From the NCBI GenBank assembly GCA_001783715.1, contig MFNF01000017.1, positions 19,366-83,365 on the forward strand: 64,000 nt of DNA, read 5' to 3'. Of this stretch, positions 30,779 through 53,111 are shown in pieces. Position 1 is the stretch's first letter. Each line of letters starts with the position of its first letter. Under the pieces are notes generated by a model. That model worked only from the letters and a program-made list of their open reading frames with translations, had not been told where the DNA came from and did not search any database. A program made the translations under genes and the position numbers. This DNA is from Candidatus Lambdaproteobacteria bacterium RIFOXYD2_FULL_56_26 (GTDB taxonomy: Bacteria; SAR324; XYD2-FULL-50-16).

Positions 30779-30936
30779 GGTGTCTCAAGTTGCAGCTGTA
30801 AAAAAGGGTTTGCCCAAGGGGAGGCAGGCCCTCCCCCAGGGGGCCGAGGGGAAGTCCCTCGGCCAGGGCCCGGACCAAGGTACCTTGGTCCGGGTAGGAA
30901 CCGAAGCCCATTGAGGGGACGTTCGGCCCAAAAGCC

Positions 30937-31374: not shown

Positions 31375-31389
31375 TCTTGTCTCCTAAGG

Positions 31390-35084: not shown

Positions 35085-35480
35085 CTAGAAGTAGGAAATG
35101 TCGTGGTCTTTGTGAATCTCGTCAAACATCAGGGCCAACCAGGTTTCCTCCAGTTTGCTCAAACCATTGTCTCCCGGCAGGGCCTGCACACCCAGGTGGG
35201 TGATGCCGTCTTCCCCTTTCCATTTGCCCCGGACGATCACCTGCAAAACAACGTTGTCGTCAAACTGCAATTCTTCACATTCAAAGATCACGGACAACTG
35301 CTGTTCTTTTTCGACGAAGTCTCCCTCGCCCATGCTGATTTTCAGGCCATTGGCGGAGATGTCTTCGATGGTGGCGGTGGTGGACGCACCGGTATCCGGC
35401 CGTTTGAGCAAAGCTGCAAACTGTCTTTGGATGCGGGAATTCCTCCGCTGCTCCATCATTCCGCCGGATTTCTTGTTCAA
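35085..35480 (-). CDS. PilZ domain c-di-GMP-binding protein
   Basis: RRNSRIQRQ (RxxxR) followed by DISANGLKI (DxSxxG), which are the PilZ signature motifs. Confidence 0.75.
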   Translation of the reverse strand: MNKKSGGMMEQRRNSRIQRQFAALLKRPDTGASTTATIEDISANGLKISMGEGDFVEKEQQLSVIFECEELQFDDNVVLQVIVRGKWKGEDGITHLGVQALPGDNGLSKLEETWLALMFDEIHKDHDISYF

Positions 35481-35642: not shown

Positions 35643-37022
35643 CTATCCCACCGAGGCGTTGGTGGAGATGAAGGTGTGAAAGGGCAACCGCTTGATGTAG
35701 TGAAACATGTAAAGGGAGGAAACCACAAAGGTCAAAACACAGGCGAGGTAATAACCCACCCCATAATACTTGAAACCGTAGCTGAAGGAAATGAAGGTAA
35801 AGGCGGCGTTGGACAGTAAAAACAACCCCTGCAAGCCCATGTAAGCCCGCCTACAGTCAAAGTAAGAAAGAATAATGTTGATAAACAAGGTCATCACCTG
35901 GAAAAAACTACCCAAAACCCCAAACCGGTAGATGCTGATCTGCATATAGTTGACCCCGAAAGCGGTAAAGAACTTGGAGGCCATCAGGATAAAGATCAGG
36001 CTGATCGCCCCTTGGACCACCAAAAAGTTCCTTGAACTCCTCAAAATGGAAAGCAGAATGTTCTCGTGGTTTTCCTTGATCTCGCTCAGCGAGGCCTTGT
36101 GCTGAATGTCCCGGTAAAACTTAAGGTAAGCTTCAAAAAAATTGGTTTCCACCGACATGATAAACATCGCCATGGAGGGAACAATGCTCAGGTAAGCCAG
36201 GAACATGGCGCTGTCGTAGTTGGGGTACAAAAAGAGGTGGGTCGGGCTGTGGTCGCTTTCGGGGGCCTGCCACATGATCCACTTGTCCACCCAGGAAGCG
36301 CTGTTGTAGGTCACCCCCGAAAGGGCCACCTCCCAATACTTTTTGAAATACCCCATAAAGGCAAAAGGCTCCTTGAACCGGTAGGGGTATTCCGCCAAGA
36401 CCCGGGCCACCAAAAGGGCCACGGTCAAACAAAGCCCCAGACTGAAGGCGGACAAAATCCCGATCAGGTCAAAGAGGTCCACCAAAAACGCCGAAGTCAG
36501 CGCCGAAAAGCCCATCCCGGTCCCAAAGGCCAGCAGTACACTTTTGTAATCCTTGATGGCGGTCACAAACACCGACAAAAGCCAGATCTCCGAAATTAGG
36601 ATGAAATTGACGATCGCCGCCAAGGCTAGGCCAGTGCTGATTTGGGCATAAAAGAAGTAAAAGGCCGAGGCCAGCGGCAGTTGGGTGCCGATGATCAGGG
36701 CCGTTCCGCCGATCAGAAGCCCCGGAGTACCTTCCACATCCTTGCGGTAAATGGCATCGGCCAGATAACGGGTGACCACCATAAACACCGGAGCCGAGAA
36801 AACCAGGGAGAAGGAAAAGTTGTAGATGATCACCCGCCGAAATTCCGAGAGGGTCTCGACGGTGGTGAATTTCCCGGCTAGGTAGCTGATGCTGCCCAAG
36901 GAGATGATGGTGAACATCCAAGGGCCGGTGGAGATCAGGGCCGAATAGGCGTAGGCCTGGAACAGCCCCGAAAGGTCGTCTCGCTTGGAAAGTTTGCGTA
37001 GCACAAAGCCAATTCCGGCCAT
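35643..37022 (-). CDS. pelG: Pel polysaccharide biosynthesis membrane protein PelG
   Basis: N-terminus MAGIGFVLRKL...GLFQAYAYSALISTGPW matches the PelG start as recalled. 459 aa, about 12 TM helices. Confidence 0.7.
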   Translation of the reverse strand: MAGIGFVLRKLSKRDDLSGLFQAYAYSALISTGPWMFTIISLGSISYLAGKFTTVETLSEFRRVIIYNFSFSLVFSAPVFMVVTRYLADAIYRKDVEGTPGLLIGGTALIIGTQLPLASAFYFFYAQISTGLALAAIVNFILISEIWLLSVFVTAIKDYKSVLLAFGTGMGFSALTSAFLVDLFDLIGILSAFSLGLCLTVALLVARVLAEYPYRFKEPFAFMGYFKKYWEVALSGVTYNSASWVDKWIMWQAPESDHSPTHLFLYPNYDSAMFLAYLSIVPSMAMFIMSVETNFFEAYLKFYRDIQHKASLSEIKENHENILLSILRSSRNFLVVQGAISLIFILMASKFFTAFGVNYMQISIYRFGVLGSFFQVMTLFINIILSYFDCRRAYMGLQGLFLLSNAAFTFISFSYGFKYYGVGYYLACVLTFVVSSLYMFHYIKRLPFHTFISTNASVG

Positions 37023-38549
37023 TTAGATCTCGCTGGGAAGTCTGGCCCCCACTCGGGCCAAGGTGTCCACGTCCGGCATGGCCAACAGTTCATCGTACAT
37101 CTGCCGGTAGGCTTGGTTTTGCAACTCTTTGCGGTAGTACCGGTCCACCCTGGCCTTGATCGCCCTGCTGCACTGTTCGTACAGCTCTTTTTCCCCCAAG
37201 AGCTTGATCATCGCTTCTCCGATGGCCGAGGGCGAGGCGAGGGGGCAAACGATCCCGCCGGGACCCAACTGTGGGTCTTCGTCGGGCCTGCCGTAAAGCA
37301 GTTCGCTGCAAGAGCCCACATCGGTGGCGATGCTGGGCACCCCAACGGCTCCAGCTTCCAGGATCACCAAGGGCTGGGCTTCCGAAAGGCTGGTGAGGAC
37401 CAAAAGGTCAAATTTGCCCAAGTATTCCTTGATGTTCACCTTGCCCAAAAACAGCACTGTTTCCTCCAGCCCCCCATGGGCCACCAACTCCTTGCATTCC
37501 TCAAAGTACGCCTCGTCCTCTTCGGTCGGCCCCATGATCCAAACCAGTGCTTCGGGAACGGCGGCCTTGAGGAAGGAGCAGGCCCGGATCAGGGTCTTGA
37601 GGTCCTTGATCGGTACCACTCGGCCCAAAAAGCCGACTGTTGGCCTTCCGCCTTGTTTGCGGGGAATCCGGGAATAGGCCTCGTAGTCGATCCCGTTGGG
37701 GATGACCTTGAGCCTCTGGGGGTCAGCCCCATCCTCGATTTGTAGCTCTTTGTTGCCTTCGTAAAGGGTGATGCTGGACTCGGCGACTTGGTAGGCCAGT
37801 TTGGAATAACCGATGAAGCTTTCGATCCAAAAGTCCCGCAGGCTTTTTCGCACCGCCCGTTGGTCCACGTTGAGGTTCAGGGACTGGCGGTCGTCCAGCC
37901 ATTCGGCGGTGCCGATCTCGATCCGCCGTTCGTTGGTGTAGATCCCATGTTCGGTCAACAAACAAGGGCGGCCGCTTTCCAAGGAAGCTCGGGCCAAAAA
38001 GAGCCCGGCGTAGCCGGTACAAAGGGCATGATAACACCGGGACCGGGGCAGCGGGCAGACCAAGACGGAAAAAAGTCCGCCCAACAAGGACCGCCAGGAC
38101 CAAAAGTAGTCCAAAAAGCTGCTGGTGTTTAAGGTTTTTTCGTACATCTGGCACAGCAGGTCAAAGGCCTCGGGGGAGTCGGTCAAGACCTCTCTGCCGA
38201 TTTCCCCTACCTCTTTGAGCAAGGTAACCAGATATTCCAAGTCCTCCAGGCTGGGGTCGGTTTGCAGCTTCAACAGCGGCCCTATTAGGTCCTGCATCAG
38301 CTTCTGCTTGCGTTTTTCGCCCACCTTGGAAAGCCGTTTGGGCAGCTTTTGCAGCTCCACCCGGACGATTTCCTTGACGTTACCGGGGACTTCATAGGCC
38401 ATTTTGGTCTTGAAGCCCGGCGGAACCAGACAAAACAAGGTAAAGGTCAGGTGGGGCTGTTCCTTGATCAAGTCATGGGTCCAACTGGACACGCCGCCCG
38501 AAACGTAAGGGTAGGTCCCTTCCAGCACCAAACAAACATCGGTGGTCAT
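37023..38549 (-). CDS. pelF: Pel polysaccharide GT4 glycosyltransferase PelF
   Basis: DVCLVLEGTYPYVSGGVSSWTHDLI N-terminal block. GT4 C-terminal E..E region LTSLSEAQPLVILEAGAVGVP. Start set at the internal Met (MTTDV) with ATGA overlap to pelE. Confidence 0.7.
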   Translation of the reverse strand: MTTDVCLVLEGTYPYVSGGVSSWTHDLIKEQPHLTFTLFCLVPPGFKTKMAYEVPGNVKEIVRVELQKLPKRLSKVGEKRKQKLMQDLIGPLLKLQTDPSLEDLEYLVTLLKEVGEIGREVLTDSPEAFDLLCQMYEKTLNTSSFLDYFWSWRSLLGGLFSVLVCPLPRSRCYHALCTGYAGLFLARASLESGRPCLLTEHGIYTNERRIEIGTAEWLDDRQSLNLNVDQRAVRKSLRDFWIESFIGYSKLAYQVAESSITLYEGNKELQIEDGADPQRLKVIPNGIDYEAYSRIPRKQGGRPTVGFLGRVVPIKDLKTLIRACSFLKAAVPEALVWIMGPTEEDEAYFEECKELVAHGGLEETVLFLGKVNIKEYLGKFDLLVLTSLSEAQPLVILEAGAVGVPSIATDVGSCSELLYGRPDEDPQLGPGGIVCPLASPSAIGEAMIKLLGEKELYEQCSRAIKARVDRYYRKELQNQAYRQMYDELLAMPDVDTLARVGARLPSEI

Positions 38550-39958
38550 GTCTGCCTCAAGCTTAAAAGGGAAGGTTCGATCCCCGTCCGCCAAAGCTCC
38601 AGGATCTGGGAAATCGCCTCGGTATCCCTAGTGTCGGATGCAGCGGTTTTGGAAAGTTGGCCCAGGTAGTCGTGGACCTCCTGGTAGGCACCCAGTTGAA
38701 AGAGCGCCTGGACGTACCAGAGCCGGATGTTTTGCCAGTCCATCGAACCCTCGGTCAAGCAGCGGTAGATCAAATCTCGGGCCAAGGCGGGTTGGTCGGC
38801 TTGCAGGCACATCCGGCCCAAGGTGAACTGCACCTTGTAGTCTTGAGGGCGGAGTTCCACGTATTTTTTGTAGTAGTCCACCGCCAGTAAAAGCATGTCG
38901 TCATACCGGCTTTCCACCAGGATCCCCGAATAGGCGTAGTTGTCCGCCTGCCGGGCCAGTTCCAGGAGCAAGGGGGCATTTTGCGGGTCTTCCTTGTGGG
39001 CCTTGGTCAGTTCCACCAGTCGGGCCACAAAACCCTGTTCGATCCGGGCCGCTACCGTGGCCGCCTGGACCCGAATGGCGTTACTTTCGTCGGTCAAGGC
39101 CAGTTTGAGGGCTGGGGCAAATTCCTTGCGGAAATGTTTGGCGATTTTGGTCAAGGCCAGACGTTTTTGGGGCATGGTGCCGACCACAAAAACGTCCTGG
39201 AAGCTCATCATGCTTTGTTTTTGGGAAAAATCGTCTTGGCCGCTCAGGATCCGGTGGAACAGGTCTTGGACATCGTCGTCCTCCGGTTCGGGAAACAGGC
39301 TGCCAAACCATTCGGCAAAGCTGTGTTTGACCAGGATCAACCGAGAAAAACTCAAGAAAGCCACCAGATTGCAAAAAGCCCCAAAGGGACCCAGCCCAAT
39401 GACCATCAAGGTCAGGAACATCAAAAATTTAACATCGTACTGCACCTTGTGGAGCCACCAGACGATCAGGCACAGCAGGCTGATGACCAACCCGTGGATC
39501 CCCGCCAATCCGGCAAAGGGAATCGTTTGGTCCTCGAACCAGACCACCCCCAAGGTTTCCAGGCCCAAGGCAAACAAGATCAGCCCCAGGTGCCAAAGCC
39601 AGTCCTGGAGGTCCAAGGATTCGCTGATGTTCTTGGGCCTTGGGTCTTCTTCCTCTTTCCCTTTACGGTTGGAAGTCTGTGCCTTGGGGCTTGGGGCCGG
39701 TAGCGGGCCGGGCTTTTTCCCCTCCGCCGGGGGCAAGGTTTCCGGGCTGGGGACGGGAACCGGCTCGGTCAGGGGGGCAACCGGGGCCAAGGCCTCCACC
39801 GGCTTTACCGGCAAAGCAGGCAAACTTTTTTCGGCAACCGGTTCTTCCATCGGCTTTAAAGGTTCCACCTCAAGGGGAGGTACCGGTTTGGCCCCCTTGC
39901 CGGGCGGGCGAAAGTTGTGGGGTCCGGTCCGCACCGGGGCTTTGGTTTTTTTGGCCAC
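38546..39958 (-). CDS. pelE: PelE-like inner-membrane TPR protein with Pro-rich N-terminal extension
   Basis: TM helices (LILFALGLETLGVVWF..., GLVISLLCLIVWWL, FLMFLTLMVIGLGPFGAFCNLVAFL) followed by TPR-like helices. About 110-aa Pro/Lys-rich N-terminus not present in the PelE architecture as recalled. Confidence 0.5.
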   Translation of the reverse strand: MAKKTKAPVRTGPHNFRPPGKGAKPVPPLEVEPLKPMEEPVAEKSLPALPVKPVEALAPVAPLTEPVPVPSPETLPPAEGKKPGPLPAPSPKAQTSNRKGKEEEDPRPKNISESLDLQDWLWHLGLILFALGLETLGVVWFEDQTIPFAGLAGIHGLVISLLCLIVWWLHKVQYDVKFLMFLTLMVIGLGPFGAFCNLVAFLSFSRLILVKHSFAEWFGSLFPEPEDDDVQDLFHRILSGQDDFSQKQSMMSFQDVFVVGTMPQKRLALTKIAKHFRKEFAPALKLALTDESNAIRVQAATVAARIEQGFVARLVELTKAHKEDPQNAPLLLELARQADNYAYSGILVESRYDDMLLLAVDYYKKYVELRPQDYKVQFTLGRMCLQADQPALARDLIYRCLTEGSMDWQNIRLWYVQALFQLGAYQEVHDYLGQLSKTAASDTRDTEAISQILELWRTGIEPSLLSLRQT

Positions 39959-41323
39959 CTACAACCTCTCCAAGGAGAGTGGCAAAGAAAGGGAGGGATG
40001 CTCCTCCTCCTTGTCCCGGCAAAACTCCTTCAACCGGGCTTCCAGCTCCGCCAACTCCGTTTTGTCCGCCCCCAGGGGGATCAGGGCAAAGGCGCTGTGG
40101 TTGGCCTTGGCGGTAAAAAGCAGCAGGTCCTTGGGGAGGTGGTCTTTGGCAAACTGGACCAGATTTTTGGCCAATCTGATCCGCAAGGTCGGGGCCGACG
40201 GGCCGGATTCGACCAGCAGGATCGAGAAATGATAAACCTCGATCTGGTGTGCTTCAATCACCCGCTCTAGGTAGGACCGGTAGTATTTGTAAAAGTTGTG
40301 GGACAACATCCCCGACTTGGGGTTGTGCATCAGGTTGGTGTAGGCCTTTTGGTACTGCCTGGCTTGGGCGAAGGTGGCCCCGGCCCATTCGAGCATCATC
40401 CTAAAGGTCTCGACGTTGGTCTGGGTGAGCTGCATAAAATCCAGCCGCTCAATCTTGATCATCCCAAAGATACTGTTGTGGATGGGGTCGATCAAGGGAC
40501 CGGCCATGACCCCTTCCTGCTCCAAAATGGCGGCATCCTGGGAGTTGATCACACAGACCACCCGCTGCTGACTGGTCAGTGTCGTGAATAGGGGGGAGTT
40601 GGTGTCAAAGTGGGAGCTGTATTCGTCCTTGTTGAGCCAACCGCTTTGGCTGATCAGCTCGAAGCCGTTGGGGCTGAATAAATAGACCGAAAACTGTTCC
40701 GGTCCGGTGATGGTGCGGACCACTTCGCCGATCCCCCGGAGCAGGAGGACCGGGTTGAGGTTGTCCACCGAACGGACGGCATTGAAGGAGTCGATGGAAC
40801 TACGCAGTTGGCCGACCAACTTGGTTTCCATCGTCTCCTTGATTTCCTTGAGGTGCTTGTAGGCTTTGGCGATTGCCTGCTCCCTGTGGTGGGTCTGGGT
40901 CACTTCTACGAGCAACGTCCGGTTGGACTCCTTGAGCCTCGCCGTCATCTCCCCCACCACCACGGTCGCCACGGTCCACATCATTGGGTTGCCGATCACC
41001 CGCAAGAGGTATTCATACTGGTTTTCGTTGATCGATGGGTTTGGCAGGTTCCAGCCAAGCAGGGCGGCGCTGCAAAACAACATGGCCAAAAGCCCGTCGT
41101 TGGTATTGTACTGGATCGAGACCAAAAGGATGATGATCCAAAAGGGATGGGGTTCCACCTCCCGAAAGCGGTTCCCTGGACCGACCCAATAGTCGATCAC
41201 CCAACAAACTGCCAAAAAGGCCAACACTTCGACCACAGAGGAAATCCGTGGACGGGACTTCATCCGTTGCAAGAAGCGTAAAATCGGGTTTGCGGGCAGG
41301 TCTGCCATCCTTGCGGTCTCCAT
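39959..41323 (-). CDS. pelD: PelD-like c-di-GMP receptor (4TM-GAF-degenerate GGDEF architecture)
   Basis: 454 aa, same size as PelD. 4 N-terminal TM helices and a soluble C-terminal region. Position between pelB and pelE as in pel operons. Confidence 0.5.
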   Translation of the reverse strand: METARMADLPANPILRFLQRMKSRPRISSVVEVLAFLAVCWVIDYWVGPGNRFREVEPHPFWIIILLVSIQYNTNDGLLAMLFCSAALLGWNLPNPSINENQYEYLLRVIGNPMMWTVATVVVGEMTARLKESNRTLLVEVTQTHHREQAIAKAYKHLKEIKETMETKLVGQLRSSIDSFNAVRSVDNLNPVLLLRGIGEVVRTITGPEQFSVYLFSPNGFELISQSGWLNKDEYSSHFDTNSPLFTTLTSQQRVVCVINSQDAAILEQEGVMAGPLIDPIHNSIFGMIKIERLDFMQLTQTNVETFRMMLEWAGATFAQARQYQKAYTNLMHNPKSGMLSHNFYKYYRSYLERVIEAHQIEVYHFSILLVESGPSAPTLRIRLAKNLVQFAKDHLPKDLLLFTAKANHSAFALIPLGADKTELAELEARLKEFCRDKEEEHPSLSLPLSLERL

Positions 41324-41335
41324 AGGGCCAAAGGC

Positions 41336-42862
41336 CTAAAATTTCCAGCGGGCTTCAAGGCCCACTTCGTTGGTGGTACGCCGGTCGATGAACCGAGAGG
41401 CGAAAAAATGAATCTCCAACGCCTTGAGGGAACGGTGGAATAGGTCGATCCCCACCAAGGGGGAGTTTTGACCCAGCCGATTGATCCCATAGCCCAGGTA
41501 TCCTTGGGAGGTGAAGTGCTCGTCCCAATTGATGCTGGCCAGCCCTCGGATCATGTAGGAGTCCTGGTCAAAGCCGGTGGCCAAGCTGTCCAGCCTCACC
41601 TGGGTGGTGTCGGCCTTTTCCTTGGCAAAGTCCAGCTCCAGTTGGGTCAAACAGGCTTTTCCGGTTTTTTCCACCAACCACTTGGGGTTGCGCCAATTGT
41701 ACTGGAGGTAGCCGTCCAGGGCCTGGGTGTGGGCCTTGTTTTCGCCAATCAAAAGATAATCTCGGCTGGAGAGGGCCAGTTTTGCCTCCAGCTTGGGGCC
41801 TACCCGGAGGACCCGTTCCAGCCGGGTTTGGCTCAAGGTGGATGCTCCCAAAAGTCCTTCGGTGATCCCCCAATAAGGGCGGTCCTGGTCCCGGAGGATC
41901 CGGGTTTCCCCCCAAATGTCAAAAGCGGCAGCCTCTAGGGACCGGCCTTTGATTTTTTCTTGGGCCAAGCTTTTGGCCTTGAGGCTGACGTTAAAGGGCA
42001 GGTCAAGGCTGAAGGAAACTTCGGTCCGTTTGATCTGACCTTTTGCTTGGGCCGGGACTTGCGGGGCAATGGGCCGCAGCTCCCGCAAGTCGTATTGGTC
42101 CTGTTCGGCCAAGACTCCGAGCGAGAGATATTGGAAAAACCGCAAGTTGGCTCCCTGGTGGCTGATCCATTCGTAGGAAACCGGGTCGGTCCAGCGGCGC
42201 TTTTTCCCGGCCCAGACCTCGGTGCCCTTTTCCCGCAGGATTTGCCGCCGCAGGTCTTGCAGCCCTTCGTTTTCCGGGGACAAAACCAGGGCTTGGTTGG
42301 CCAGATCAAGCGCCTTGGCCCAGTTGCCCAAGGAAAGCTCCGCTTCGGCCATGGAAGTCAAAACCGAAGTGTTGCCCCGGTTGCTGAGCGCCAGCCCGTT
42401 GAGCGTGTCCATCGCTTGGTCGGCCTTGCCTTGGCGGATCCAAAGCCTCGATTGGACCAGTTTAAAAAGCAGGGTGTTTTCATCAACCGGAACCCTCTTG
42501 GCGTAGGGGTTGACCAACCGCAACCTCAGGGACCGGTCCTCCGAGTGGGTCTCGATCTTCATTTCGGTGGAGAGCTCAAAAAACAAGGAGTCGTAAGACA
42601 GGTTTACGCCCTTGATCCACCCGGCCATGACCGGCTCCGCCGCTTCCAATCCGGGCATCTCCACCTTCTGGTCAAAGGTCACCAACAGTTCCCCCAAATC
42701 CGGGTTGTAGGCGACCTTGGCCTGGGCCGGCTCGGTCCACTTTAGGGTGATCTCAAACACCTCCGGGGATTGGTGCCACAAAAACTCCACCTCCAGGGCC
42801 TTCAAGGGCAAGGGGAGGCAGACCAAAAACCAGACCAAAAGCGCCAAAGGTTTAGTGCGCAC
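41336..42862 (-). CDS. outer-membrane beta-barrel protein with its own signal peptide (PelB C-terminal porin-like, encoded separately)
   Basis: Signal peptide MRTKPLALLVWFLVCLPLPLKALE. C-terminal ...GLEARWKF has the terminal aromatic residue typical of OMP barrels. Start overlaps the stop of the TPR gene by 11 nt. Confidence 0.45.
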   Translation of the reverse strand: MRTKPLALLVWFLVCLPLPLKALEVEFLWHQSPEVFEITLKWTEPAQAKVAYNPDLGELLVTFDQKVEMPGLEAAEPVMAGWIKGVNLSYDSLFFELSTEMKIETHSEDRSLRLRLVNPYAKRVPVDENTLLFKLVQSRLWIRQGKADQAMDTLNGLALSNRGNTSVLTSMAEAELSLGNWAKALDLANQALVLSPENEGLQDLRRQILREKGTEVWAGKKRRWTDPVSYEWISHQGANLRFFQYLSLGVLAEQDQYDLRELRPIAPQVPAQAKGQIKRTEVSFSLDLPFNVSLKAKSLAQEKIKGRSLEAAAFDIWGETRILRDQDRPYWGITEGLLGASTLSQTRLERVLRVGPKLEAKLALSSRDYLLIGENKAHTQALDGYLQYNWRNPKWLVEKTGKACLTQLELDFAKEKADTTQVRLDSLATGFDQDSYMIRGLASINWDEHFTSQGYLGYGINRLGQNSPLVGIDLFHRSLKALEIHFFASRFIDRRTTNEVGLEARWKF

Positions 42863-45530
42863 CGATCAACTCCTCTGCTTCATCGATCTTTCCCACTTCC
42901 AAAAGCAGGTTGGCCAAGTTGGCCTTGAGCGAAATTTCCAAGGGATGGGAAGCGATCAGCTCCTTGTAAATGCCGATGGTTTTTTCCCGTTGTTTTTGGT
43001 CCCAGTAGATTTGGGCCATGATCAATTTGGATTCCATGTCGTTTTTGGCCGAAACCTTCAGGATAGCCAAGGCTTCCAGGGACAATTCCTTGCCCCTGGG
43101 GTCTTCCTTGCGGTTGAGCAGTTGGCCCAAGTAAAAATAGACCTTTGCGTCCACCAACCCCTGGGCGATCGCCTCGTTGAAGTATCCTTCCGCATCGGTA
43201 AACCGGCCTTGGTTGTAAGCGGTGATCCCCAGTTGGGCGATCGATTCCTTGTCGGTGGGCATCAAGACCAGCAGTTTCTTGAAGGCTTTTTCTGCCAGCG
43301 GTTGATTCCCGGCCATGTTGGCCAGCTTTTTGAGCCGTTCCAGGTCCGTTTCTTCGGCCACCGCCAACGACAGTTTCTCAAAGAACTTGGCCCGGTTGGG
43401 CTGGCCTTGCAGATATTCCAGGTAAAGGTCCATCAGCGGTTTGTTGTCCTGGTGTTGGCCTTTCTCCACCGCTTCGACCAACCGCTCCCCTTGGCCAACC
43501 TGGATCAACCGCCGGTACCAGCCCACCTGATCCTTGGGCTCCGCCTTGTTCAACCGGGCCACCAGCCAGTCGATCTTTTCGGGTGCCGGTCGAAGCCCCC
43601 AGAGAAACAACAGTTGTTCCACCGCACTGCTTTGGGGGCCTTCGTTCTGGGCTTGGGACAAAAAGATCTCTTCCGCTTCGGTTTTATAGCTTTTGTCCAA
43701 GAAAATGAAGGCAATCTCCTGGCGGCGTTGTTGGGTCACCCCAGGGTGCTTGGCTTCGTTGAGCCAGATTTGTCGCCATTCTTCCTTCCTGCCCAGAGCA
43801 TAAAGGGTTTCGGCATAAGGCTCAAGCCATTCGGCTTTGTTTTTGCCGTAGAGCCGCTGCAAAAGGACCAGAGCCGCTGGGTAGTCCTGGTTGAGCAAAA
43901 GACCGTTGGCCAAGTACCCGTTCGCTTCCTCGGAGGGTTGGGCCTTGGCAAACCACTGGGCCGCTTCCAGGGCCAAGGGGCGGCGGGAAAAACGAACCCC
44001 GGCAAAGTAGAGCTGCCGGTAAAGGTCCAGCGGCGGATTTTCCAGGCCTTTGACCGTGGCCCGGATGGAGTCGGTTTGGCCAAGGGCGGCTTGGTTGAGC
44101 ATCCAAGCATAGAGGATCGGGAGCTGGAAAACCAACTCCTTGCCCGCCACCCGGTGTTTTTCCTGGTCGATCAAGCGGCTGGCTTGTGCGGAGAGGCCAT
44201 AGGTGATGTACATTTCGATGACCTCGACCATGTCCAAGAACCTTACATCCGCCAGACTGGTCACCCGCTCCAATTGCCCCTTCGCTTGGGGGCCAAAGGC
44301 CAGCTCGTGGTAAACTCGGGCCAAGAAGATCTTGCGCCAGTCTTCCAAATTGCCGTTGCGGTCCACCGCTAGGCTTGCCGCTGCCGCATTGGGTCCTTGG
44401 CCGACCACCTCCAAAACTGCGCCTACCAGCCACTGCTCGGCCAAGTAGGTTTTGGACAATCTGGCCTTGAGGGCCAGGGCTTCGGGGTAGAGCCGGAGCT
44501 GCATCATTCGCTTGGCCAGCCGCAACAGGTGCCCTTCGGTCAAGACCGAAAGGTTCCCGTATTGGACGAATTCCTTGACCCTCGGCCCATCGTCCCGGTC
44601 GAGCAGAAGTTCCAGGTAGGTTTGGGTCAAACCGGCGGGCAGGGTCCCGGCCTTGAAGTTGCGGGACATCCGTTCATAGGCCTTGTCCTGCATCCCTTGG
44701 GCGATTTGGATGCTCACCAAGGCCAAGAGAATCCCTTCGGGCAGTTTTTCTTGGGTTTCATAGGGCTGCAACAGCCGGTAGGCCAAGGGCAAAGCCCCCC
44801 GGTTGCGAAACAACAGGCTGATCCGCTCCAGGTAATGGCCTTTTTTTCCCTGGATCACCTGGAGCGCAAAGTCCAGCGCTTGGTCGGCCCGGCCCAGGTC
44901 CAACATGATGCTCAAGGCGAATTCCACCTCCCCGGACTCCATCTCTTGGAACCGGTTGTCGATCAATTGCTCCACCACCTGGTAAACCTCGTCAAACCGC
45001 TTTTGGGAGGCAAAAAGGTAGGCCAGGTTGATGTAGTCTTCATGGTCCGGGTGGAATTCCGCAATGATCCTTTGCAGCGCCAACACCTGTAGGTCGTATT
45101 CTTCGTTGTAGTTGTAGATCTGCGCCAGCTCCCGCAACAGCTCCTTGCTGGGGACCAGCCTGCTGATCGCCTCCAGGTTTCTTTGGTAGTCCGCCGGTCG
45201 CTGGGCGTAACGGTAGTAGGTGCTCAGCCGGTAGCGGACCTCCAATTCGTTGGGCAGCTGGTAGAGGTTCTCTTCCAAAACCTTGATTGCCTTGTCCACC
45301 ATGCCGTACTGGAGGTAAAGGTCGCAAAGCGGGCCGATCATCGAGGGAGAGCGGCTGCCCGCCTCATACTGCGCCTCGTACCGGGCCAGGGCGTTTTTAA
45401 AGTTTTTGTCCTTGAAGTTGAGGAAGGCCACTTCATCGTCCGAAGGGACCATCAGGTATCCCCCGGCCAGCCCCAGGAAAGCCAGGGAAAAAACTGCATA
45501 ACGAATGTACAGGGTCCGCTGTAGGATCAT
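42852..45530 (-). CDS. large TPR-repeat protein with N-terminal membrane anchor (PelB N-terminal TPR scaffold-like)
   Basis: 892 aa, about 20 TPR-like units; N-terminal hydrophobic anchor YAVFSLAFLGLAGGYLMV. Immediately upstream of the beta-barrel gene. Confidence 0.5.
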   Translation of the reverse strand: MILQRTLYIRYAVFSLAFLGLAGGYLMVPSDDEVAFLNFKDKNFKNALARYEAQYEAGSRSPSMIGPLCDLYLQYGMVDKAIKVLEENLYQLPNELEVRYRLSTYYRYAQRPADYQRNLEAISRLVPSKELLRELAQIYNYNEEYDLQVLALQRIIAEFHPDHEDYINLAYLFASQKRFDEVYQVVEQLIDNRFQEMESGEVEFALSIMLDLGRADQALDFALQVIQGKKGHYLERISLLFRNRGALPLAYRLLQPYETQEKLPEGILLALVSIQIAQGMQDKAYERMSRNFKAGTLPAGLTQTYLELLLDRDDGPRVKEFVQYGNLSVLTEGHLLRLAKRMMQLRLYPEALALKARLSKTYLAEQWLVGAVLEVVGQGPNAAAASLAVDRNGNLEDWRKIFLARVYHELAFGPQAKGQLERVTSLADVRFLDMVEVIEMYITYGLSAQASRLIDQEKHRVAGKELVFQLPILYAWMLNQAALGQTDSIRATVKGLENPPLDLYRQLYFAGVRFSRRPLALEAAQWFAKAQPSEEANGYLANGLLLNQDYPAALVLLQRLYGKNKAEWLEPYAETLYALGRKEEWRQIWLNEAKHPGVTQQRRQEIAFIFLDKSYKTEAEEIFLSQAQNEGPQSSAVEQLLFLWGLRPAPEKIDWLVARLNKAEPKDQVGWYRRLIQVGQGERLVEAVEKGQHQDNKPLMDLYLEYLQGQPNRAKFFEKLSLAVAEETDLERLKKLANMAGNQPLAEKAFKKLLVLMPTDKESIAQLGITAYNQGRFTDAEGYFNEAIAQGLVDAKVYFYLGQLLNRKEDPRGKELSLEALAILKVSAKNDMESKLIMAQIYWDQKQREKTIGIYKELIASHPLEISLKANLANLLLEVGKIDEAEELIGAH

Positions 45531-47764
45531 AAGGTCGCTCGGAACCCGATTTCGATGGGCTCCAGGCTTTGGGGGATCTGAAGGGTCATCCAGCCGTCTT
45601 GGTATTGGAACTCCAAACTTTTTTTGTCTTTACGTTCGGCCACCCAGTTCCGGCGGGGGTCCAGCCGCCACCTTTGTTTCCCTGGGCCAAAGCCGCGGGT
45701 GAAAAATCGTTGGGTTAGGCTGCCCCGTTCCAGGCCCGAAACCTCCCAGGTACTCCAGTCCAAGGAGGCCTCTTCTCCGGTTTGGGGGGCAAACCGGTAG
45801 CGGAAGTTCCCCAACCCGACCACCGGTTCCGGCTCGGTTTGGTCGAGGTAAACATACAGGCAACCTTGGAAGTAGTTGTGACCGATCACCCCTTTGGAAC
45901 GGCGGTAGTCCACCGTTTTGCCTGAACCTTGGTCAAACCGAAGGGTTTGTAGTGCCCCACGGTGCAAAACTTTCCACTGCTCCTTTTGCATCGGTTCCAG
46001 CTCTACCGAGTAAAAACCCTGGGCGATTTGGGCGAACTGGGAAGCCCAGATCCGGGTCAACCGTTCTTTGCGGGCGAGCTCTATGTTCTCCATCAAGGCG
46101 AGGTAGCTGGCCTGCCGCTCCCCGGAATACATGTGGTAGTAGATGTTAAAGGGCTTGACCCGGATCGGCTGTTCGGTGTTAAAAACCGTGTTGGCCAAAA
46201 ACCGGAAGCCGTGGAACCCTCCGGTCCAAAGGTCGGTGTAGGTGTTTTCGTTGCTGTTGGAAGAATAGATCTGCCGCTCCTTACCGACAATCCGGCCCAC
46301 CGGGGCCACCCAGGCATAGGAGGGGTATTTGGAGTCCATCCTGGAGTCGCCGCCGTTGATGTTTTCGAGCCCGGCGGTCCGGGTTTTGACCAGCGCCGCC
46401 TCAAAGGGGCTGGTGTTGCCCGACCACATCAGGATCTTGGCCTTTTTGCCTGGTGGAGCCAACCCTTCCAAAAAGGCGACCGAACCGCCGATCTCCAGGT
46501 CGAGGTCAAAAGGCTGGTTTGCATAGGCACGGGGGACATCATAGTCATCAATGAGTCCACTGCCTTCCTTGTAGATGTTTTTTTCATCGCCCTTGTAAAA
46601 AAAGGCCAACATCCGGTTGACCACCTTACCCTTGCCCCAGCCGCCCCCTTTGTACCGAGAGAGATAGGGCCGCTCCTTTTCCGGGTCCCCGGACTCAAAA
46701 AAACTCCACTGGAAGGGGTGGGAATAGGTGTGGGAGCCGATTTCCACGTTGGGCAGGGCAAAGATTTCCTTGGCAACCTTAACCGACTGCGGCTTGCCCG
46801 CCCATTTGGGGTCCAGCTCGGCGGCAATGGCCGAGACGCTGACCGGCATGTCTTGGAACCGCTTGAGGACCCGCTCATAGATCACCTGAGAGGAAAAAAC
46901 CTGCTGGTCCTTGTAGTCCTCCAGGTACGTGACGTTGTTCCAGCCATCCCCATCGATGTGGCTGTAGAAAATCCGGCTTCCAGCCAGGGTGTTGGAGTCC
47001 GGTTTGGGTAGGTCGTCGGTGCCCAGGGCGAGGCGGAAGAATTCAAAGGGGTTGATGTACCACTGCCGGACCGCTTGGTCCAACTCCAGGTTGTAGAACA
47101 TCGCATAACCCTCGGCGATGTAGCCCCCTTTGGGACCGGTCATGATCAGGTGGGACCGGGAGTTGAGGTCCTCCCCCCTTTGGATGATCAGGTGGCTGGT
47201 GACCAAGGGGCTCAAGGGGGCAATCCGGTCAAAGGGGGGCTTGACCCGAAACTCCTTGCGTTCGTACTTGGTCAGGCTGGGGTCTTCATAAACAAACCGG
47301 TGGTTGTAGGTCAGCTCCACCCATTCGTCCAGTTCCTGGATCCCCATTTCCTCGAAAAAACGGGTGATAGCCATGGTTCGTTTGACCTCCGAACTGTTTT
47401 CGGAGCGAAACCCCGACTCGCCGATGATCACAAACCGTTTGCCTTGGCGCAGGAGCTTGCGCCCCCATTCCAGGTACTCCAAAGGGCGGTCCATCTTGTA
47501 ACCGGGCCCAAACCAAGTGAGCACCCCCCGGACCTCCGGCTGGTTGGACAGGTCGGGCAGTCCTTGTTTGAGGTCATGGGGCCGGATGATCAGCCCCAGG
47601 TGGTTGAGCGGCATTTCCACAAACTGGTGGACCCGGCTGAACCGAAAGTTTGATTTGGAACTGTCGTACAGCGCCACCACCACCCTGGGGACAGGAGCAG
47701 CGTAGACCCACTGTGCCCCCAACGTCAGCAGCAGCAACAACAAAAAAGCCCAGGTTTTTTGCAT
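45527..47764 (-). CDS. secreted CE4-type polysaccharide deacetylase (PelA deacetylase-domain-like)
   Basis: Signal peptide MQKTWAFLLLLLLTLGAQWVYA. CE4-like motifs YSHIDGDGW (D-D-like) and EIGSHTYSHP (HS/TxxH). 745 aa. Confidence 0.5.
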   Translation of the reverse strand: MQKTWAFLLLLLLTLGAQWVYAAPVPRVVVALYDSSKSNFRFSRVHQFVEMPLNHLGLIIRPHDLKQGLPDLSNQPEVRGVLTWFGPGYKMDRPLEYLEWGRKLLRQGKRFVIIGESGFRSENSSEVKRTMAITRFFEEMGIQELDEWVELTYNHRFVYEDPSLTKYERKEFRVKPPFDRIAPLSPLVTSHLIIQRGEDLNSRSHLIMTGPKGGYIAEGYAMFYNLELDQAVRQWYINPFEFFRLALGTDDLPKPDSNTLAGSRIFYSHIDGDGWNNVTYLEDYKDQQVFSSQVIYERVLKRFQDMPVSVSAIAAELDPKWAGKPQSVKVAKEIFALPNVEIGSHTYSHPFQWSFFESGDPEKERPYLSRYKGGGWGKGKVVNRMLAFFYKGDEKNIYKEGSGLIDDYDVPRAYANQPFDLDLEIGGSVAFLEGLAPPGKKAKILMWSGNTSPFEAALVKTRTAGLENINGGDSRMDSKYPSYAWVAPVGRIVGKERQIYSSNSNENTYTDLWTGGFHGFRFLANTVFNTEQPIRVKPFNIYYHMYSGERQASYLALMENIELARKERLTRIWASQFAQIAQGFYSVELEPMQKEQWKVLHRGALQTLRFDQGSGKTVDYRRSKGVIGHNYFQGCLYVYLDQTEPEPVVGLGNFRYRFAPQTGEEASLDWSTWEVSGLERGSLTQRFFTRGFGPGKQRWRLDPRRNWVAERKDKKSLEFQYQDGWMTLQIPQSLEPIEIGFRATL

Positions 47765-47768
47765 TTCC

Positions 47769-48629
47769 TCAACGAGGTTCAGGGATGACTTTGTCTAGGG
47801 CGATGGTTGAGACGTAAGGGTTAAAGCCGTTGTTGCGCTGTTCCTGGTAGATCCGTTTGATTCCTTCCCGGTCTTTGGGGTCCCAGTAGTCCAAGGTATA
47901 GACCTGGAGTTTAGGGTACCGTTTTTGTGCATCCTTGAGAATCCGTAGTTGTTCTTGGTAAAGGGCCTTAGGGACCAGCCGGTAGGTTTGGGTCGAAAAA
48001 TCGTAGTCCCCAAAGACGGATTCCCCCAAGACCATGTCCACATATCCTCCCCCTTGCTCATAAAGGTCGTAGCCTCGGTTGAGCATCACCGGCAGGTTGG
48101 GGTAGTGGGTGCGAATGGCCAAAAGCAGGTTGACCGCCGCTTGGGTCATGCCTTTGTAGGCAGCCGGATCGGTCCTCTCCAGGTGCCCCGGATTGTCCAT
48201 GGTGTCCAAAAACAGCCCGTCAAAGCCCTGGTGCAGAATCGCCGGGATCAGGTCTTCAATCACCCGACGGACCCACCGGGGGGCCCTGACATCCACAAAA
48301 TAGCTGCCTTTCCAGTTCCGGTTTTCCATCAACAAAATCCCCTCCGCCCGGACTTCATTGTAGTAGGGCCGGTCCTTCTCCACTTCCCCCAGGCTCAGGT
48401 AACCCAAAAGCAGCTTTTTTTGCGTTTTTAAGGTTTCCAAAGAGGGGTGGTAGTGGCTGTCGAGGACCAGCAGGGAATAGGGGGCCAGTTCCTCCAAGGT
48501 AGGTTGGTCCGAATAGGTGACCGCCCACTTGGGAGAAGCTCCATACCCTAGCCTCAGAAACCCGACCAATAGCAGGAAGAAAAGCGAAACCGGCCGCAAC
48601 AGGTTCATTTGCCTCCTAGAGGGGACCAT
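47769..48629 (-). CDS. secreted glycoside hydrolase family 114-like protein (PelA hydrolase-domain-like)
   Basis: Signal peptide. YSLLVLDSHYHPS...LLLGYLSLGEVEKDRPYY...SYFVDVRAPRWVRRVIEDLIPAILHQGFDGLFLDTMD matches the GH114/TM1410 pattern. 4-nt gap to the deacetylase gene. Confidence 0.55.
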   Translation of the reverse strand: MVPSRRQMNLLRPVSLFFLLLVGFLRLGYGASPKWAVTYSDQPTLEELAPYSLLVLDSHYHPSLETLKTQKKLLLGYLSLGEVEKDRPYYNEVRAEGILLMENRNWKGSYFVDVRAPRWVRRVIEDLIPAILHQGFDGLFLDTMDNPGHLERTDPAAYKGMTQAAVNLLLAIRTHYPNLPVMLNRGYDLYEQGGGYVDMVLGESVFGDYDFSTQTYRLVPKALYQEQLRILKDAQKRYPKLQVYTLDYWDPKDREGIKRIYQEQRNNGFNPYVSTIALDKVIPEPR

Positions 48630-49949
48630 TTATTTTGGGTCTTCATGGACCGTTTTGAGCCGGGACATGTCATAAACCAAAGCCGAGGCCACCTGATGGG
48701 AGCCTTGGACCTGACAACGTTCCCCTTGGATGACCCGCAGGTAGGACAAGGCCTTGTCGGCACGGGACATCACTTGGCCGGGGCGGAATAAGCTCTGGGA
48801 ATCCTTGACCAACCAAGCGTATTTGATGAACGGGTCCACCATAAAGGGGCGGTCCAAGAGGGATTCGCCCAAATATTCGGCAATGGTTTCCGTGTGGAAG
48901 GCAAACAGCTTTTCCGCCAAGTCACGGGTCCCCGGAGTGTCCCCTTGGGCCAAGGCAAGATAAAAGTCCATGCTCCCTTGGTTGGACATGACCAAGCGTT
49001 TTTGCAGCACAAAGTCCCGGTGGTCTTCGGGAACCATGTCCAGCATCTGTTTAACCAGATGGGCCAGGATCGGGATATTGGAAAAGAGCTGGGCCAGGGT
49101 AAAGTGCAGTTGCAACACCAGCCCGCACTTGATCGGCTCATCTCCGACCTGTTTGTCCTTTCCTCCCTGGAGGTAGGTGTGGGCAGCTTTGGCGATCAGG
49201 GGTTTGGCCAGGGGACTGACAAAGTAACCGGTCTTTTGGAAGATATTGTTCATCCGCTTGAGCCCCTTTTGCAGGTCTTTGATTCGGCCCAAGTGGCGGA
49301 TCATCAGGAGCTGTTTGGACAAGTCCTTGCGCAGTTTGAGCACCTCTTCGTCCCGGATGTTCTCGGTGGCGGCGTTGACCCGTACCAAACGGTCATTGAG
49401 GAACCCCAGGTAAGAGCTGTACATGGCGATCAGCCAGTTGGCCGAAAACAGGCTCAAGGCCCCGTTGTGCAAGGCCTTGCCCATTTCGGTCAGTGCGTCT
49501 CGAATCACCTGGACCTTGTTGAGGTCGGCCGCACCGGCCTGCATGGCATCGTTAAAAACCAGAATTGCGTTGAGGCTGTGGGCCTCGGCATAGAAGGGGT
49601 GGCTTTTGAGCAGGTCCTTGATCTCGGTACGGCACTTGGAGACCCCTTGCTTACTGGTGAAGTTGTTGACTTCCTTGCGCAAGGTCGAAAGGTCGGCGTT
49701 GGGCTTGCGGCGGAACAGTCCTTCCTTCTGTTTGGGGTAAAAGAGGTCGTTGCCAAAAAAGGCGGGGCCGTAGGGGAAGTAGGTCAGCAGGTCCGAGAGT
49801 TCCCGGGCGTTTTCTCTGGCTTCGATGCTGGATTTGGTGGCAACCCTCTGGGTCGCACGGGATTCGTTGCTCCCTCCAGGGCCGGGAATAGGAATCAGGA
49901 CCTTGGGTTCCCCGGTCTGATTCAAGCGGGAGTCCTTGGTTTGCGCCAT
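48630..49949 (-). CDS. hypothetical protein (439 aa) at the head of the pel gene string
   Basis: Abuts the GH114 gene (start codon adjacent). No motif recognised. Confidence 0.45.
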   Translation of the reverse strand: MAQTKDSRLNQTGEPKVLIPIPGPGGSNESRATQRVATKSSIEARENARELSDLLTYFPYGPAFFGNDLFYPKQKEGLFRRKPNADLSTLRKEVNNFTSKQGVSKCRTEIKDLLKSHPFYAEAHSLNAILVFNDAMQAGAADLNKVQVIRDALTEMGKALHNGALSLFSANWLIAMYSSYLGFLNDRLVRVNAATENIRDEEVLKLRKDLSKQLLMIRHLGRIKDLQKGLKRMNNIFQKTGYFVSPLAKPLIAKAAHTYLQGGKDKQVGDEPIKCGLVLQLHFTLAQLFSNIPILAHLVKQMLDMVPEDHRDFVLQKRLVMSNQGSMDFYLALAQGDTPGTRDLAEKLFAFHTETIAEYLGESLLDRPFMVDPFIKYAWLVKDSQSLFRPGQVMSRADKALSYLRVIQGERCQVQGSHQVASALVYDMSRLKTVHEDPK

Positions 49950-49989: not shown

Positions 49990-51825
49990 TTAAAAATCCA
50001 GGTCCAGTTGAGGTCGGCTCTCGATCTCCCCCATCATGGCCAGTTGTTGTTCCTCTTCCTTTTCTTGCTTGTCCTCTTCTTCCTCGACCTCCAAGGCCGG
50101 TTCGGGCATGGACTTCCACTTGAACAGCAAGGCGTTGAGCGCCCGAGTGTGTTTGAGACCCTTGTAGATTCCTGCCAGCAGCATAAAGACATCCTTGTCT
50201 TTTTTCATGGACAAGGCATCTTCCAGCGCCTTGGCGGCTTTCAGGTAATCCTTGGCCCGATAAAACTGCTTTCCTTGTAAAATTAGGGCCTGTCTGCGGG
50301 CTTCAATCTCTGCCAGCTCCTTTTGGATCCGCATTTTGTTGATTTCATCTTGCAGCAGATCCACCTCACTGTTGCGGTTGAGCACCCCTAAGATGCGGAC
50401 CCGTTGCTTGAGGGTTTCCATTTGCCGCAAAATCTTTTCCGCCCTGAAGTTGTCGGCCAGAGCGTTTTGGAACTTTTTTTCCTCCATGGCGGTTTCCGCC
50501 AGTTTGAGGTACCCGTCGTGTACTTCCTGCAACAAGGTTCGGGTCAGTTCGCCGTTCGGGTCCAACTCCCGCATTTTTTGGTAACAAACCAGGGCTTGGT
50601 CGTGGTCGTCGAGGCTCCGGTAAACGTCGCCCATCTTGGCCCGAATCTCGGGACGCTCTTGGATCAGGCAGGCCTCTTCGTATAGCCCCAGGGCATCTTG
50701 TTTGCGGTCTTCCAAAAAGAGATCGTCCCCGTGGGCCAAAATTTCTTCGACCCGATAGAGCCCCTGTGAACGGGAAAGGAGCCGAGCGGCATTGCATAAA
50801 AAGAGGTGCCCTTCCAATGGTTTCCCAGCTTTGAGGAAGGTAATGCCCAGATTCTGGTTTAGCGCTCGGTTGTAAGGTTGGCTAGTCCTAAGTTGCTCTA
50901 AGGCCAAGAAATTTTCGTCGCTTGGGTCCAAATTAAACTTGGAAAGGGCGCAAAGGGTTGCAACTTCAGGCATGACGGATTTTTGGTTGGACAGGCGGCA
51001 AAAAATTTCGGAGGCCTTGGCAAAATCCCCGTTTTCAAAGGCAAAAAGGGCAAAATTGAAGTTGTCCGACTGAATTACGTTTTGGACCAAGTCGGGCGGA
51101 CTGTTGCGCCAGTTGGTTTTAACCCGTTCCGCCAGTGTCTCTTGGATGGTGGCTGGGTCCTGGGGCTTGCCGGCGGCGGCTAGGTTGCGTTTGACCGTTT
51201 CGATCAGGTCCGGGTCCCCTTGGTAGGTCGGGAGCCGTAGTTTGCGCACCGGGATCCACCGGGCCAGGAATTCCTCGACCTCTTGGTCGTAGGCCTCCAG
51301 TTTGGCTCCATTGGCTCCAAAATTCAGGTGGGCTTTGGTGTAATCCGGTTTGATTTGGTAACAAAGCCGGTAAAAGCGGTCAGCCTGCTCCCTCAACTTC
51401 AAATGTCTGGCACAATTGCCCAGGTGGTTGAGGATCACATAGTTTTTGGGCTCCAACTCCAACAAAATCCGGCCCAGGTTGAGCGCTTCTTCAAAGCTGT
51501 CCGCTTTGATCAACCGGGCAAACTGCTGGCCCAGCCCCGTTTTTGCCCCTTGAGGGTCCAGTCCCAACGCCTTTTGGAACTCAACGGAAGCGGACTTCAT
51601 CAACTTGCCTCGGAGCAGCAAAAAACCTTTTTGCAGCACCTCTTGGACTTGGGCGCTGGGGGCTTGGGGACCGGAGCTTTCACTCATGGAAAAAACCTGT
51701 TTGGAGGCGATCGGCAAAGGAGCCGCCCTTTTTATACCTGGGTTAAAAAGTAAAACTGGGTTAAAAGTAAAAAATCCTTGTGCAGTAAGCTCCTTCCGGT
51801 ATGCAGAGGGTAGGCCAGAGCCCAA
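49990..51825 (-). CDS. TPR repeat protein with acidic C-terminal tail
   Basis: 611 aa; TPR-like units; C-terminal EVEEEEDKQEKEEEQQ. Confidence 0.7.
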   Translation of the reverse strand: MGSGLPSAYRKELTAQGFFTFNPVLLFNPGIKRAAPLPIASKQVFSMSESSGPQAPSAQVQEVLQKGFLLLRGKLMKSASVEFQKALGLDPQGAKTGLGQQFARLIKADSFEEALNLGRILLELEPKNYVILNHLGNCARHLKLREQADRFYRLCYQIKPDYTKAHLNFGANGAKLEAYDQEVEEFLARWIPVRKLRLPTYQGDPDLIETVKRNLAAAGKPQDPATIQETLAERVKTNWRNSPPDLVQNVIQSDNFNFALFAFENGDFAKASEIFCRLSNQKSVMPEVATLCALSKFNLDPSDENFLALEQLRTSQPYNRALNQNLGITFLKAGKPLEGHLFLCNAARLLSRSQGLYRVEEILAHGDDLFLEDRKQDALGLYEEACLIQERPEIRAKMGDVYRSLDDHDQALVCYQKMRELDPNGELTRTLLQEVHDGYLKLAETAMEEKKFQNALADNFRAEKILRQMETLKQRVRILGVLNRNSEVDLLQDEINKMRIQKELAEIEARRQALILQGKQFYRAKDYLKAAKALEDALSMKKDKDVFMLLAGIYKGLKHTRALNALLFKWKSMPEPALEVEEEEDKQEKEEEQQLAMMGEIESRPQLDLDF

Positions 51826-52679: not shown

Positions 52680-52991
52680 ATGAAAAGGTTTGTGATCGCT
52701 TTGGCTTTGGTGGCCTTCAGTACCGGTTCGGCACTGGCCTTGGATGGCAAGGCATTGTATGGGGAGAAAAAATGTGCTATGTGCCACGGGCCTGAAGGCA
52801 AGTCTGCGGCCAAAACTTTTCCGAGCCTAGCCGGAAAAGACGCTGCCTTTTTGGCCGCTGAAACCAAAAAGATCAAGTCCGGAGAACGTGCCGGAGCCAT
52901 GACCGGGGCCATGAAGATCAACCCTGGGGTTAAAAACTCAACCGATGAAGAGATTACCGCCATTGCCGAATACTTGGCGGCGGTAAAATAA
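52680..52991 (+). CDS. monohaem class I c-type cytochrome with signal peptide
   Basis: Signal peptide MKRFVIALALVAFSTGSALA; haem-binding CAMCHG (CxxCH); 103 aa; distal Met candidates. Confidence 0.85.
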   Translation: MKRFVIALALVAFSTGSALALDGKALYGEKKCAMCHGPEGKSAAKTFPSLAGKDAAFLAAETKKIKSGERAGAMTGAMKINPGVKNSTDEEITAIAEYLAAVK

Positions 52992-53111
52992 ACCGCCTGC
53001 AGGCTTGGTCTTTCTTGAGGACCCGTTTTTGGCAACCGCCGGCAACAGGTCCTTTCCTCTCTACTGTGCATTGTTGGGTTTGCTGTTCCTCCAGCCTCTT
53101 TTGAACGGACC

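Follow-up and report, generated by a model that had tools for sequence, protein, structure and literature searches.

The 64,000-nucleotide stretch of contig MFNF01000017.1 (assembly GCA_001783715.1, forward-strand positions 19,366 to 83,365) of Candidatus Lambdaproteobacteria bacterium RIFOXYD2_FULL_56_26, hereafter the window, carries on its minus strand a tightly packed pel-type operon that is a genuine and probably functional gene cluster for the Pel biofilm polysaccharide. All eight open reading frames (ORFs) named in a first-pass annotation of this DNA were recovered at the same positions. They encode, in this order, a hydrolase (286 amino acids, aa), a deacetylase (745 aa), a tetratricopeptide repeat (TPR) scaffold (892 aa), a porin (508 aa), PelD-like and PelE-like proteins, PelF and PelG, and are spaced by 4-nucleotide (nt) gaps or short overlaps, with Shine-Dalgarno boxes. 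The locus is larger than first described and also includes two conserved upstream genes for cytoplasmic helical-repeat proteins and a downstream PilZ gene, so that eleven closely spaced genes extend from 51825 to 35085. We are confident that this is an intact pel-type synthase-dependent exopolysaccharide operon whose 'split' architecture is frequent among diderm (two-membrane) bacteria from the environment. The core of the original reading, in which PelA and PelB are each produced as two separately exported proteins by genuine genes and PelC is gone, is supported. No tRNA or Rfam matches were found in the window, and a promoter and terminator scan performed no better than on shuffled sequence.

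PelA and PelB each encoded as two proteins

The two enzymatic parts of PelA are encoded by adjacent genes. The upstream one (47769..48629, minus strand) encodes a glycoside hydrolase with a signal peptide. Its description as a GH114-like hydrolase was partly correct: the 286-aa protein matches Glyco_hydro_114 (PF03537, E=1.3e-24), but among solved structures its best match is the hydrolase domain of PelA, a GH166 domain (5tcb, E=4.8e-23), and Glu203 occupies the alignment position of E218A, the substitution in the inactive variant 5tsy, which identifies it as the counterpart of the catalytic Glu. Because an AGGAGG box precedes M8 of the ORF, translation probably starts at this codon (48608), yielding a protein of 279 rather than 286 aa.

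The 745-aa protein (45527..47764, minus strand) combines mixed alpha/beta, CE21 deacetylase and beta-rich domains and matches the PelA structure 9cgy (E=8e-54). It has no Pfam match even at E<=10, including Polysacc_deac_1, the model suggested along with the initial 'CE4-like' label, and DUF2194, and that label has to be dropped. The published catalytic set of Pseudomonas aeruginosa PelA (PaPelA; H526, D528, D530, H600, H604, E723 and H761) has its counterparts in the catalytic and metal residues H269, D271, D273, H345, H349, E506 and H544, all seven of which are invariant in a 22-sequence alignment. Given these structure matches and aligned catalytic residues, the two proteins are best labeled, at the level of sequence, as GH166-like rather than GH114 and as CE21 (PelA-type) rather than Pfam CE4. 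The N-terminus of the deacetylase resembles a cleavable signal peptide ending in VYA-AP, by heuristic assessment only. Homologs of this protein are numerous (1689 at E<=1e-5), and almost all of the best 120 are 700-810 aa long, with only two fusions of about 1008 aa that include a GH114 domain.

The two genes are indeed 4 nt apart, as had been noticed before: the junction reads TGA-GGAA-ATG, and joining them would require the loss of the stop codon plus a change of frame. In one fused relative, P0096, residues 10-279 align with hydrolase residues 16-285 (54% identity), followed by an 11-residue linker and then by residues 291-989, which align with deacetylase residues 22-730. The position of the linker is the site of the signal peptide in the 745-aa protein. 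Because the two halves of P0096 align on either side of this linker, the split in PelA lies exactly at a domain boundary, with the signal peptide replacing the linker, and is functionally sensible. The two fused PelA forms are mutual nearest relatives and are placed among split forms from Acidobacteriota. Since the split form is also the majority state (see below), fusion of ancestrally separate genes is equally possible as fission; of the initial proposal that these are genuine fissions and not frameshift pseudogenes, the part that stands is that the genes are real and their boundaries conserved, whereas the direction of the event does not follow.

PelB, too, is represented by two proteins, in accordance with the original prediction. 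The 892-aa TPR scaffold (42852..45530, minus strand) has TPR matches in Pfam and a hydrophobic segment at residues 12-30. This N-terminal helix is followed by P-x-[DE][DE]E, a pattern kept in relatives; because of this P-x-acidic motif and the lack of an AxA-type cleavage site, the helix is probably an uncleaved inner-membrane anchor. There is no lipobox. Orthologs of about 890-900 aa occupy the same position in four related loci (L001, L002, L005 and L006). The 508-aa outer-membrane porin (41336..42862, minus strand) consists of a signal peptide, an acidic beta-sandwich, a short TPR module and a barrel of about 16 strands that ends in WKF, and in its predicted fold it most resembles the outer-membrane part of PelB. 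The GTG start codon of its gene, preceded at seven bases by GAGGAG, lies within the TPR gene, 11 nt before that gene ends, and this 11-nt overlap is also kept in close relatives. Together, the two proteins provide the long periplasmic TPR region and the C-terminal outer-membrane barrel that characterize PelB. Only five close homologs of the porin were found, all 508-539 aa long. A porin-family profile retrieved 842 clusters; among the top 150 of these, about 120 are stand-alone proteins and about 28 form the C-terminus of TPR proteins of 920-1560 aa.

Related loci and the absence of PelC

The closest relatives of the window locus, L001, L002 and L003, on contigs that encode the close porin homologs, share with it an order of 11-12 genes, encoding the cytoplasmic TPR protein, an unknown protein of about 430 aa, hydrolase, deacetylase, TPR scaffold, porin, PelD, PelE, PelF, PelG, PilZ and Usp, at 49-62% protein identity. 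For a broader comparison, a scan of one genome per species yielded 484 relatives of the deacetylase, of which the best 80 loci were taken together with six earlier ones and scored with hidden Markov models (HMMs) for which the window and loci close to it supplied the sequences; the counts refer to 83 non-duplicate loci. A separate hydrolase gene adjoins the deacetylase gene in 66 loci and lies elsewhere in the locus in three more (69/83 separate), the two domains are fused in two loci (2/83), and no hydrolase gene was seen within the fetched stretch in the remaining 12. The porin is stand-alone in 47 loci, fused to the TPR region in 11, and not seen within the fetched stretch in 25. Thus, the split boundaries observed in the window are kept in its relatives, and the split is the majority state among the 83 loci. 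The carriers include cultured Azospirillum species and metagenome-assembled genomes (MAGs) assigned to Minwuia thermotolerans, Magnetococcus, Waddlia and other Chlamydiae, Acidobacteriota, Nitrospinota, SAR324 and Rickettsiales. The core order of hydrolase, deacetylase, TPR, porin, PelD, PelE, PelF and PelG also occurs in loci from Magnetococcales, Azospirillum, Gammaproteobacteria and Acidobacteriota MAGs. These components are found in the SAR324 locus (L004) as well, except that pelG lies on the other strand and pelD-F were not detected.

Some members of this set show further variation. The pel loci of Chlamydiae MAGs (Parachlamydiaceae, Waddlia sp. and others; L030, L031, L050 and L059) all have the hydrolase and deacetylase split (4/4), with TPR and porin fused in L030, L031 and L059, PelD-G present in L031 and L059, and PelC in none. 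Two stand-alone copies of the deacetylase, in tandem or at separate loci, are encoded in L008/L013 (a single Rickettsiales MAG chromosome), L046 and L050, the last of which also has two hydrolase genes.

The earlier observation that a PelC-like gene is lacking extends to the entire window: an HMM of PelC from related loci has no match in the six-frame translation of all 64 kb (best E=3.3). This model was validated against the PelC structure 9h80_C in PDB, which one lipoprotein homolog matches (E=1.6e-13); 24 loci give strong matches, and at E<=0.1 no others appear in any frame. Among the related loci, the distance from the porin gene to pelD is bimodal, the long intervals holding one or two lipoprotein genes; in the window, it is 12 nt. 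Where porin gene and pelD are both visible (49 loci), PelC is absent in about 28 and present in 21, and the PelC-less set includes Azospirillum sp. TSO22-1 (L081).

Most of the compared Azospirillum genomes carry pelC and some do not: the gene is absent in L081 and L038 and present in L049, L052, L054, L055 and L085, in otherwise identical split pel operons. In MAGs of Gammaproteobacteria/Chromatiales, two PelC paralogs in tandem, with longest ORFs of about 190 aa and about 220-290 aa, are encoded between the porin gene and pelD (L014:8746-10013, L018:11072-12513, L021:16019-17304, L035:16027-17249 and L064:16207-17495), which raises the possibility of a hetero-oligomeric PelC ring. The beta-sandwich of the porin was considered as a replacement of PelC and rejected, given that all PelC-bearing loci have the sandwich and several PelC-less loci lack it.

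Inner-membrane components and accessory genes

The assignments of PelF and PelG are unambiguous, and the earlier claim that they stand in canonical order with pelE and pelD is borne out. PelG (35643..37022, minus strand) is a polytopic inner-membrane protein with eight hydrophobic segments that matches PF16933 over its full length (E=1.5e-121). PelF (37023..38594, minus strand) is a GT4 glycosyltransferase with DUF3492 and Glycos_transf_1 domains that scores 442 bits against the NF038011 equivalog, with a cut-off of 100 (E=3e-132); its true start is probably M16 at 38549, which gives 508 aa. PelF is the sole glycosyltransferase of the operon. Models of GT2, PgaC and BcsA had no match among the ten operon proteins, and that of PgaA gave only a below-threshold TPR match of 16 bits; the Pga or Bcs system, named at the outset as an alternative, is thus not supported, as no GT2 processive synthase (PgaC or BcsA) was detected in the operon.

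The PelE-like protein (38546..39958, minus strand) has, as had been pointed out, a Pro-rich N-terminus of about 110 residues, which is of low complexity and includes 28 Pro in the first 110 residues, two or three transmembrane helices with hydrophobic segments within residues 121-196, and a TPR-like C-terminus (TPR_19). There is no curated family model of PelE to score against; the protein has the transmembrane helices and the TPR-like domain expected of PelE and is homologous to the product of the same-position gene in other pel loci. The extension varies in length, given that the orthologs consist of 387 aa (L001) and 549 aa (L002). The PelD-like protein (39959..41323, minus strand) has a hydrophobic N-terminal region (segment at residues 27-45), a GAF domain (GAF_3, E=5.9e-6) and a divergent C-terminal domain, and in about 50 loci its gene keeps the slot that separates the porin gene from pelE. 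The search with PelD_GGDEF, put forward earlier as a check, gave no Pfam match even at E<=10, and neither sequence nor profile searches matched the solved PelD structures. Accordingly, the statement that PelE and PelD are both recognizable holds for PelE through its transmembrane helices and TPR, whereas PelD can be recognized solely by position, membrane segment and GAF domain. A PelD homolog in L005 (2974-4080) is 368 aa long and lacks the entire C-terminal domain of the window protein, which recalls streptococcal PelD subtypes without a cyclic di-GMP (c-di-GMP) domain described in a published review.

Two further cytoplasmic genes upstream of the hydrolase gene are conserved in the nearest relatives only. 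The first gene of the conserved block (49990..51825, minus strand; ORF of 611 aa) encodes a TPR protein with Pfam matches and no hydrophobic segment. Its start is likely M47 at about 51687 (about 565 aa); orthologs of 556-582 aa occupy the same position in L001 and L002 and are missing from more distant pel loci. The next gene (48630..49949, minus strand) encodes an all-alpha helical-repeat protein of 439 aa without a signal peptide, a lineage-specific accessory component for which 5.8 billion sequences yielded six homologs and whose fold, a generic helical repeat, provides no functional lead. Just downstream of pelG, a gene for a 131-aa PilZ-domain protein (35085..35480, minus strand; PF07238, E=4.9e-7) holds the same position in L001 and L002 and is found beside pelG in the SAR324 locus L004; the protein possibly serves as a c-di-GMP input. 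That the accessory helical-repeat and PilZ genes are regulatory is a guess.

The flanks of the operon contain genes of other kinds. At 52680-56744, on the plus strand and divergent from pel, the window encodes a cytochrome c, a PAS hybrid histidine kinase with a receiver, and a cyclic nucleotide (cNMP)-binding protein; in the relatives, cytochrome c is followed by a hybrid kinase (L001) or a cNMP-binding protein (L002 and L003). The divergent kinase and cNMP-binding genes could be local regulators. A few kb from the pel operon, at 21601-32685 on the minus strand, lies a run of genes that bears hallmarks of contractile phage tails. A DUF2586 protein (31390-32685) and a protein with Baseplate_J (25459-26544) are among the products, most of which otherwise have no Pfam match; this run may be a prophage, a tailocin or an injection-system-like cluster.

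Comparison with known systems, alternatives and implications

Relative to pelABCDEFG of P. aeruginosa, the window locus has clear homologs of PelF and PelG, a hydrolase and a deacetylase that match the two enzymatic parts of PelA with the catalytic residues kept, a TPR scaffold, a porin of the 16-strand type that is closest in fold to PelB, and the gene order A-B-D-E-F-G. The differences are that PelA consists of two secreted proteins, and PelB of a probably inner-membrane-anchored TPR protein plus a separate porin that has an additional beta-sandwich at its N-terminus; PelC is missing; PelD has no detectable GGDEF or I-site signature; PelE has the Pro-rich extension; and there are three extra conserved genes. 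Thus, an in-operon PelC, a single-chain bifunctional PelA and a single-chain PelB, all characteristic of canonical Gram-negative operons, are not found. Like the window locus, the pelDEA(DA)FG operon of Bacillus cereus with its separate pelA(H) has distinct hydrolase and deacetylase genes (PMC7112168, PMC7890745), and DUF2194, the label that the review applies to Gram-positive PelA, is attached to some homologs of the 745-aa protein. Unlike Gram-positive pel operons, which lack outer-membrane export parts and have a transmembrane-tethered PelA(DA), the window encodes a TPR scaffold and a porin, and its deacetylase has a signal-peptide-like N-terminus. The review considers mono-functional PelA to be a hallmark of Gram-positive bacteria, a view that is contradicted by the split PelA loci of diderms.

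The layout of the window locus recurs in Magnetococcus marinus MC-1, Azospirillum and many MAGs, where the genes for hydrolase, deacetylase, TPR protein, porin, PelD, PelE, PelF and PelG come in the same order and with the same splits. These loci differ in that M. marinus, most Azospirillum and the Chromatiales have pelC, in one or two copies, inserted ahead of pelD and after the porin gene, the upstream helical-repeat genes are absent, and the PilZ gene recurs only in the SAR324 locus. In the supplementary table of Bundalovic-Torma et al., two adjacent PelA genes (849 and 2388 nt) are given for M. marinus MC-1, with PelC, PelF and PelG listed and PelB, PelD and PelE unrecognized; the same authors count 73 losses of PelC over 381 operons and describe 'pelB fission' in Aquificae and Geobacter. 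Those published fissions (387+951 aa and 300+945 aa) cut within the TPR region, whereas in the window the cut lies between scaffold and porin.

The separation of scaffold and porin has a parallel in alginate secretion, where the TPR scaffold AlgK and the porin AlgE are separate polypeptides, as are the two window proteins. AlgK is an outer-membrane lipoprotein, unlike the window TPR protein with its lack of a lipobox. The coupling of AlgX, AlgK and AlgE is mentioned in the literature. Taken singly, each feature of the window locus is thus already known or can be read from published data; a diderm layout that combines a split PelA, a scaffold encoded apart from the porin and a lack of PelC was not found explicitly described in the literature. 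The split layout is a widespread, little-described variant and not an oddity, and the window locus is an ordinary member; the architecture, initially considered non-canonical, is such relative to Pseudomonas but is otherwise widespread and partly represented in the literature.

Several observations weigh against our interpretation. Hydropathy and visual inspection were the only basis for calling the signal peptides and the TPR protein's membrane anchor, the model of the porin is of moderate confidence (predicted local distance difference test, pLDDT, of 66) with the last strands poorly modeled, and PelD is the weakest assignment, based on position, one hydrophobic segment and GAF_3, with no clear RxxD (c-di-GMP I-site) motif in the alignment. 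Structural work on P. aeruginosa describes the PelC ring as essential and unique to Pel, and for this reason PelC-free export is something that we infer from gene content. Given this reported essentiality and the fact that only 64 kb of the genome are visible, PelC might be encoded elsewhere, with export canonical apart from the gene splits. We regard this as quite improbable: pelC lies inside the operon in 24 of the 24 PelC-positive loci and nearly always separates the porin gene from pelD; the interval between these two is shorter than 150 nt in the window and in about 28 other loci; and the PelC-less loci have no PelC match in the 10 kb to each side.

Sequencing or assembly frameshifts, or decay of single-gene pelA and pelB into pseudogenes, would account for the adjacency of the gene pairs, with their 4-nt gap and 11-nt overlap, and this adjacency is all that speaks for such an origin. 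The two junctions (47764..47769 and 42852..42862), flagged for a frameshift check in the first-pass annotation, have identical boundaries in independent assemblies at 49-62% identity, and the downstream proteins open with hydrophobic signal sequences of their own. PelA is split in 69 of the 71 informative loci and the porin is stand-alone in 47 of 58; with the catalytic residues intact, and with both a stop-codon loss and a frame change needed to fuse PelA, this explanation is effectively refuted. It is unlikely, if somewhat less so than a PelC encoded elsewhere, that the polymer is related to Pel but chemically different, such that 'Pel' would be a family label only. The strong divergence of PelD, PelE, the TPR protein and the porin from their Pseudomonas counterparts and the extra lineage-specific genes are compatible with a different polymer, and the authors of the operon survey voice the same caveat for divergent pel operons. 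Conversely, PelF exceeds the equivalog cut-off more than fourfold, the hydrolase and deacetylase retain the active-site residues of PelA, and a Pel-like polymer of N-acetylgalactosamine (GalNAc) is made by B. cereus, whose parts are similarly divergent.

Under the favored interpretation of a split, PelC-less pel operon, PelF would polymerize a GalNAc-rich chain at the complex that PelD, PelE and PelG form in the inner membrane. The 745-aa deacetylase would dock on the TPR scaffold via the two domains that PelA uses to bind PelB, and partially deacetylate the chain. Anchored to the inner membrane by an N-terminal helix that is not cleaved off, the TPR protein would pass the chain to the separate porin, which would contribute its own short TPR module and acidic beta-sandwich domain, and export would proceed without a PelC ring. 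The free hydrolase might trim or release the polymer, like the stand-alone PelA_H of B. cereus. The two cytoplasmic helical-repeat proteins and the PilZ protein, restricted to the nearest relatives, would be accessory and probably regulatory.

Current models of Pel secretion are based on P. aeruginosa, with its bifunctional PelA, single-chain PelB and essential PelC ring. Among the nearest diderm loci, a split PelA is the rule, and about half of the complete loci, including that of one cultured Azospirillum strain, lack PelC; mono-functional PelA is not a Gram-positive hallmark. A broader proposal, which we put forward only tentatively and consider rather doubtful in its entirety, is that a large group of diderms exports Pel independently of PelC, via an anchored scaffold and a sandwich porin, and that, in the lineage of the window, a module of the cytoplasmic TPR, 439-aa and PilZ proteins replaces the c-di-GMP sensing of a degenerate PelD; if true, this control module would be previously undescribed. 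For the window itself, the gain is mainly the correct annotation of an unclassified lineage. For the Pel family at large, the natural pairs of PelC-plus and PelC-minus operons provide a test bed for the role of PelC.

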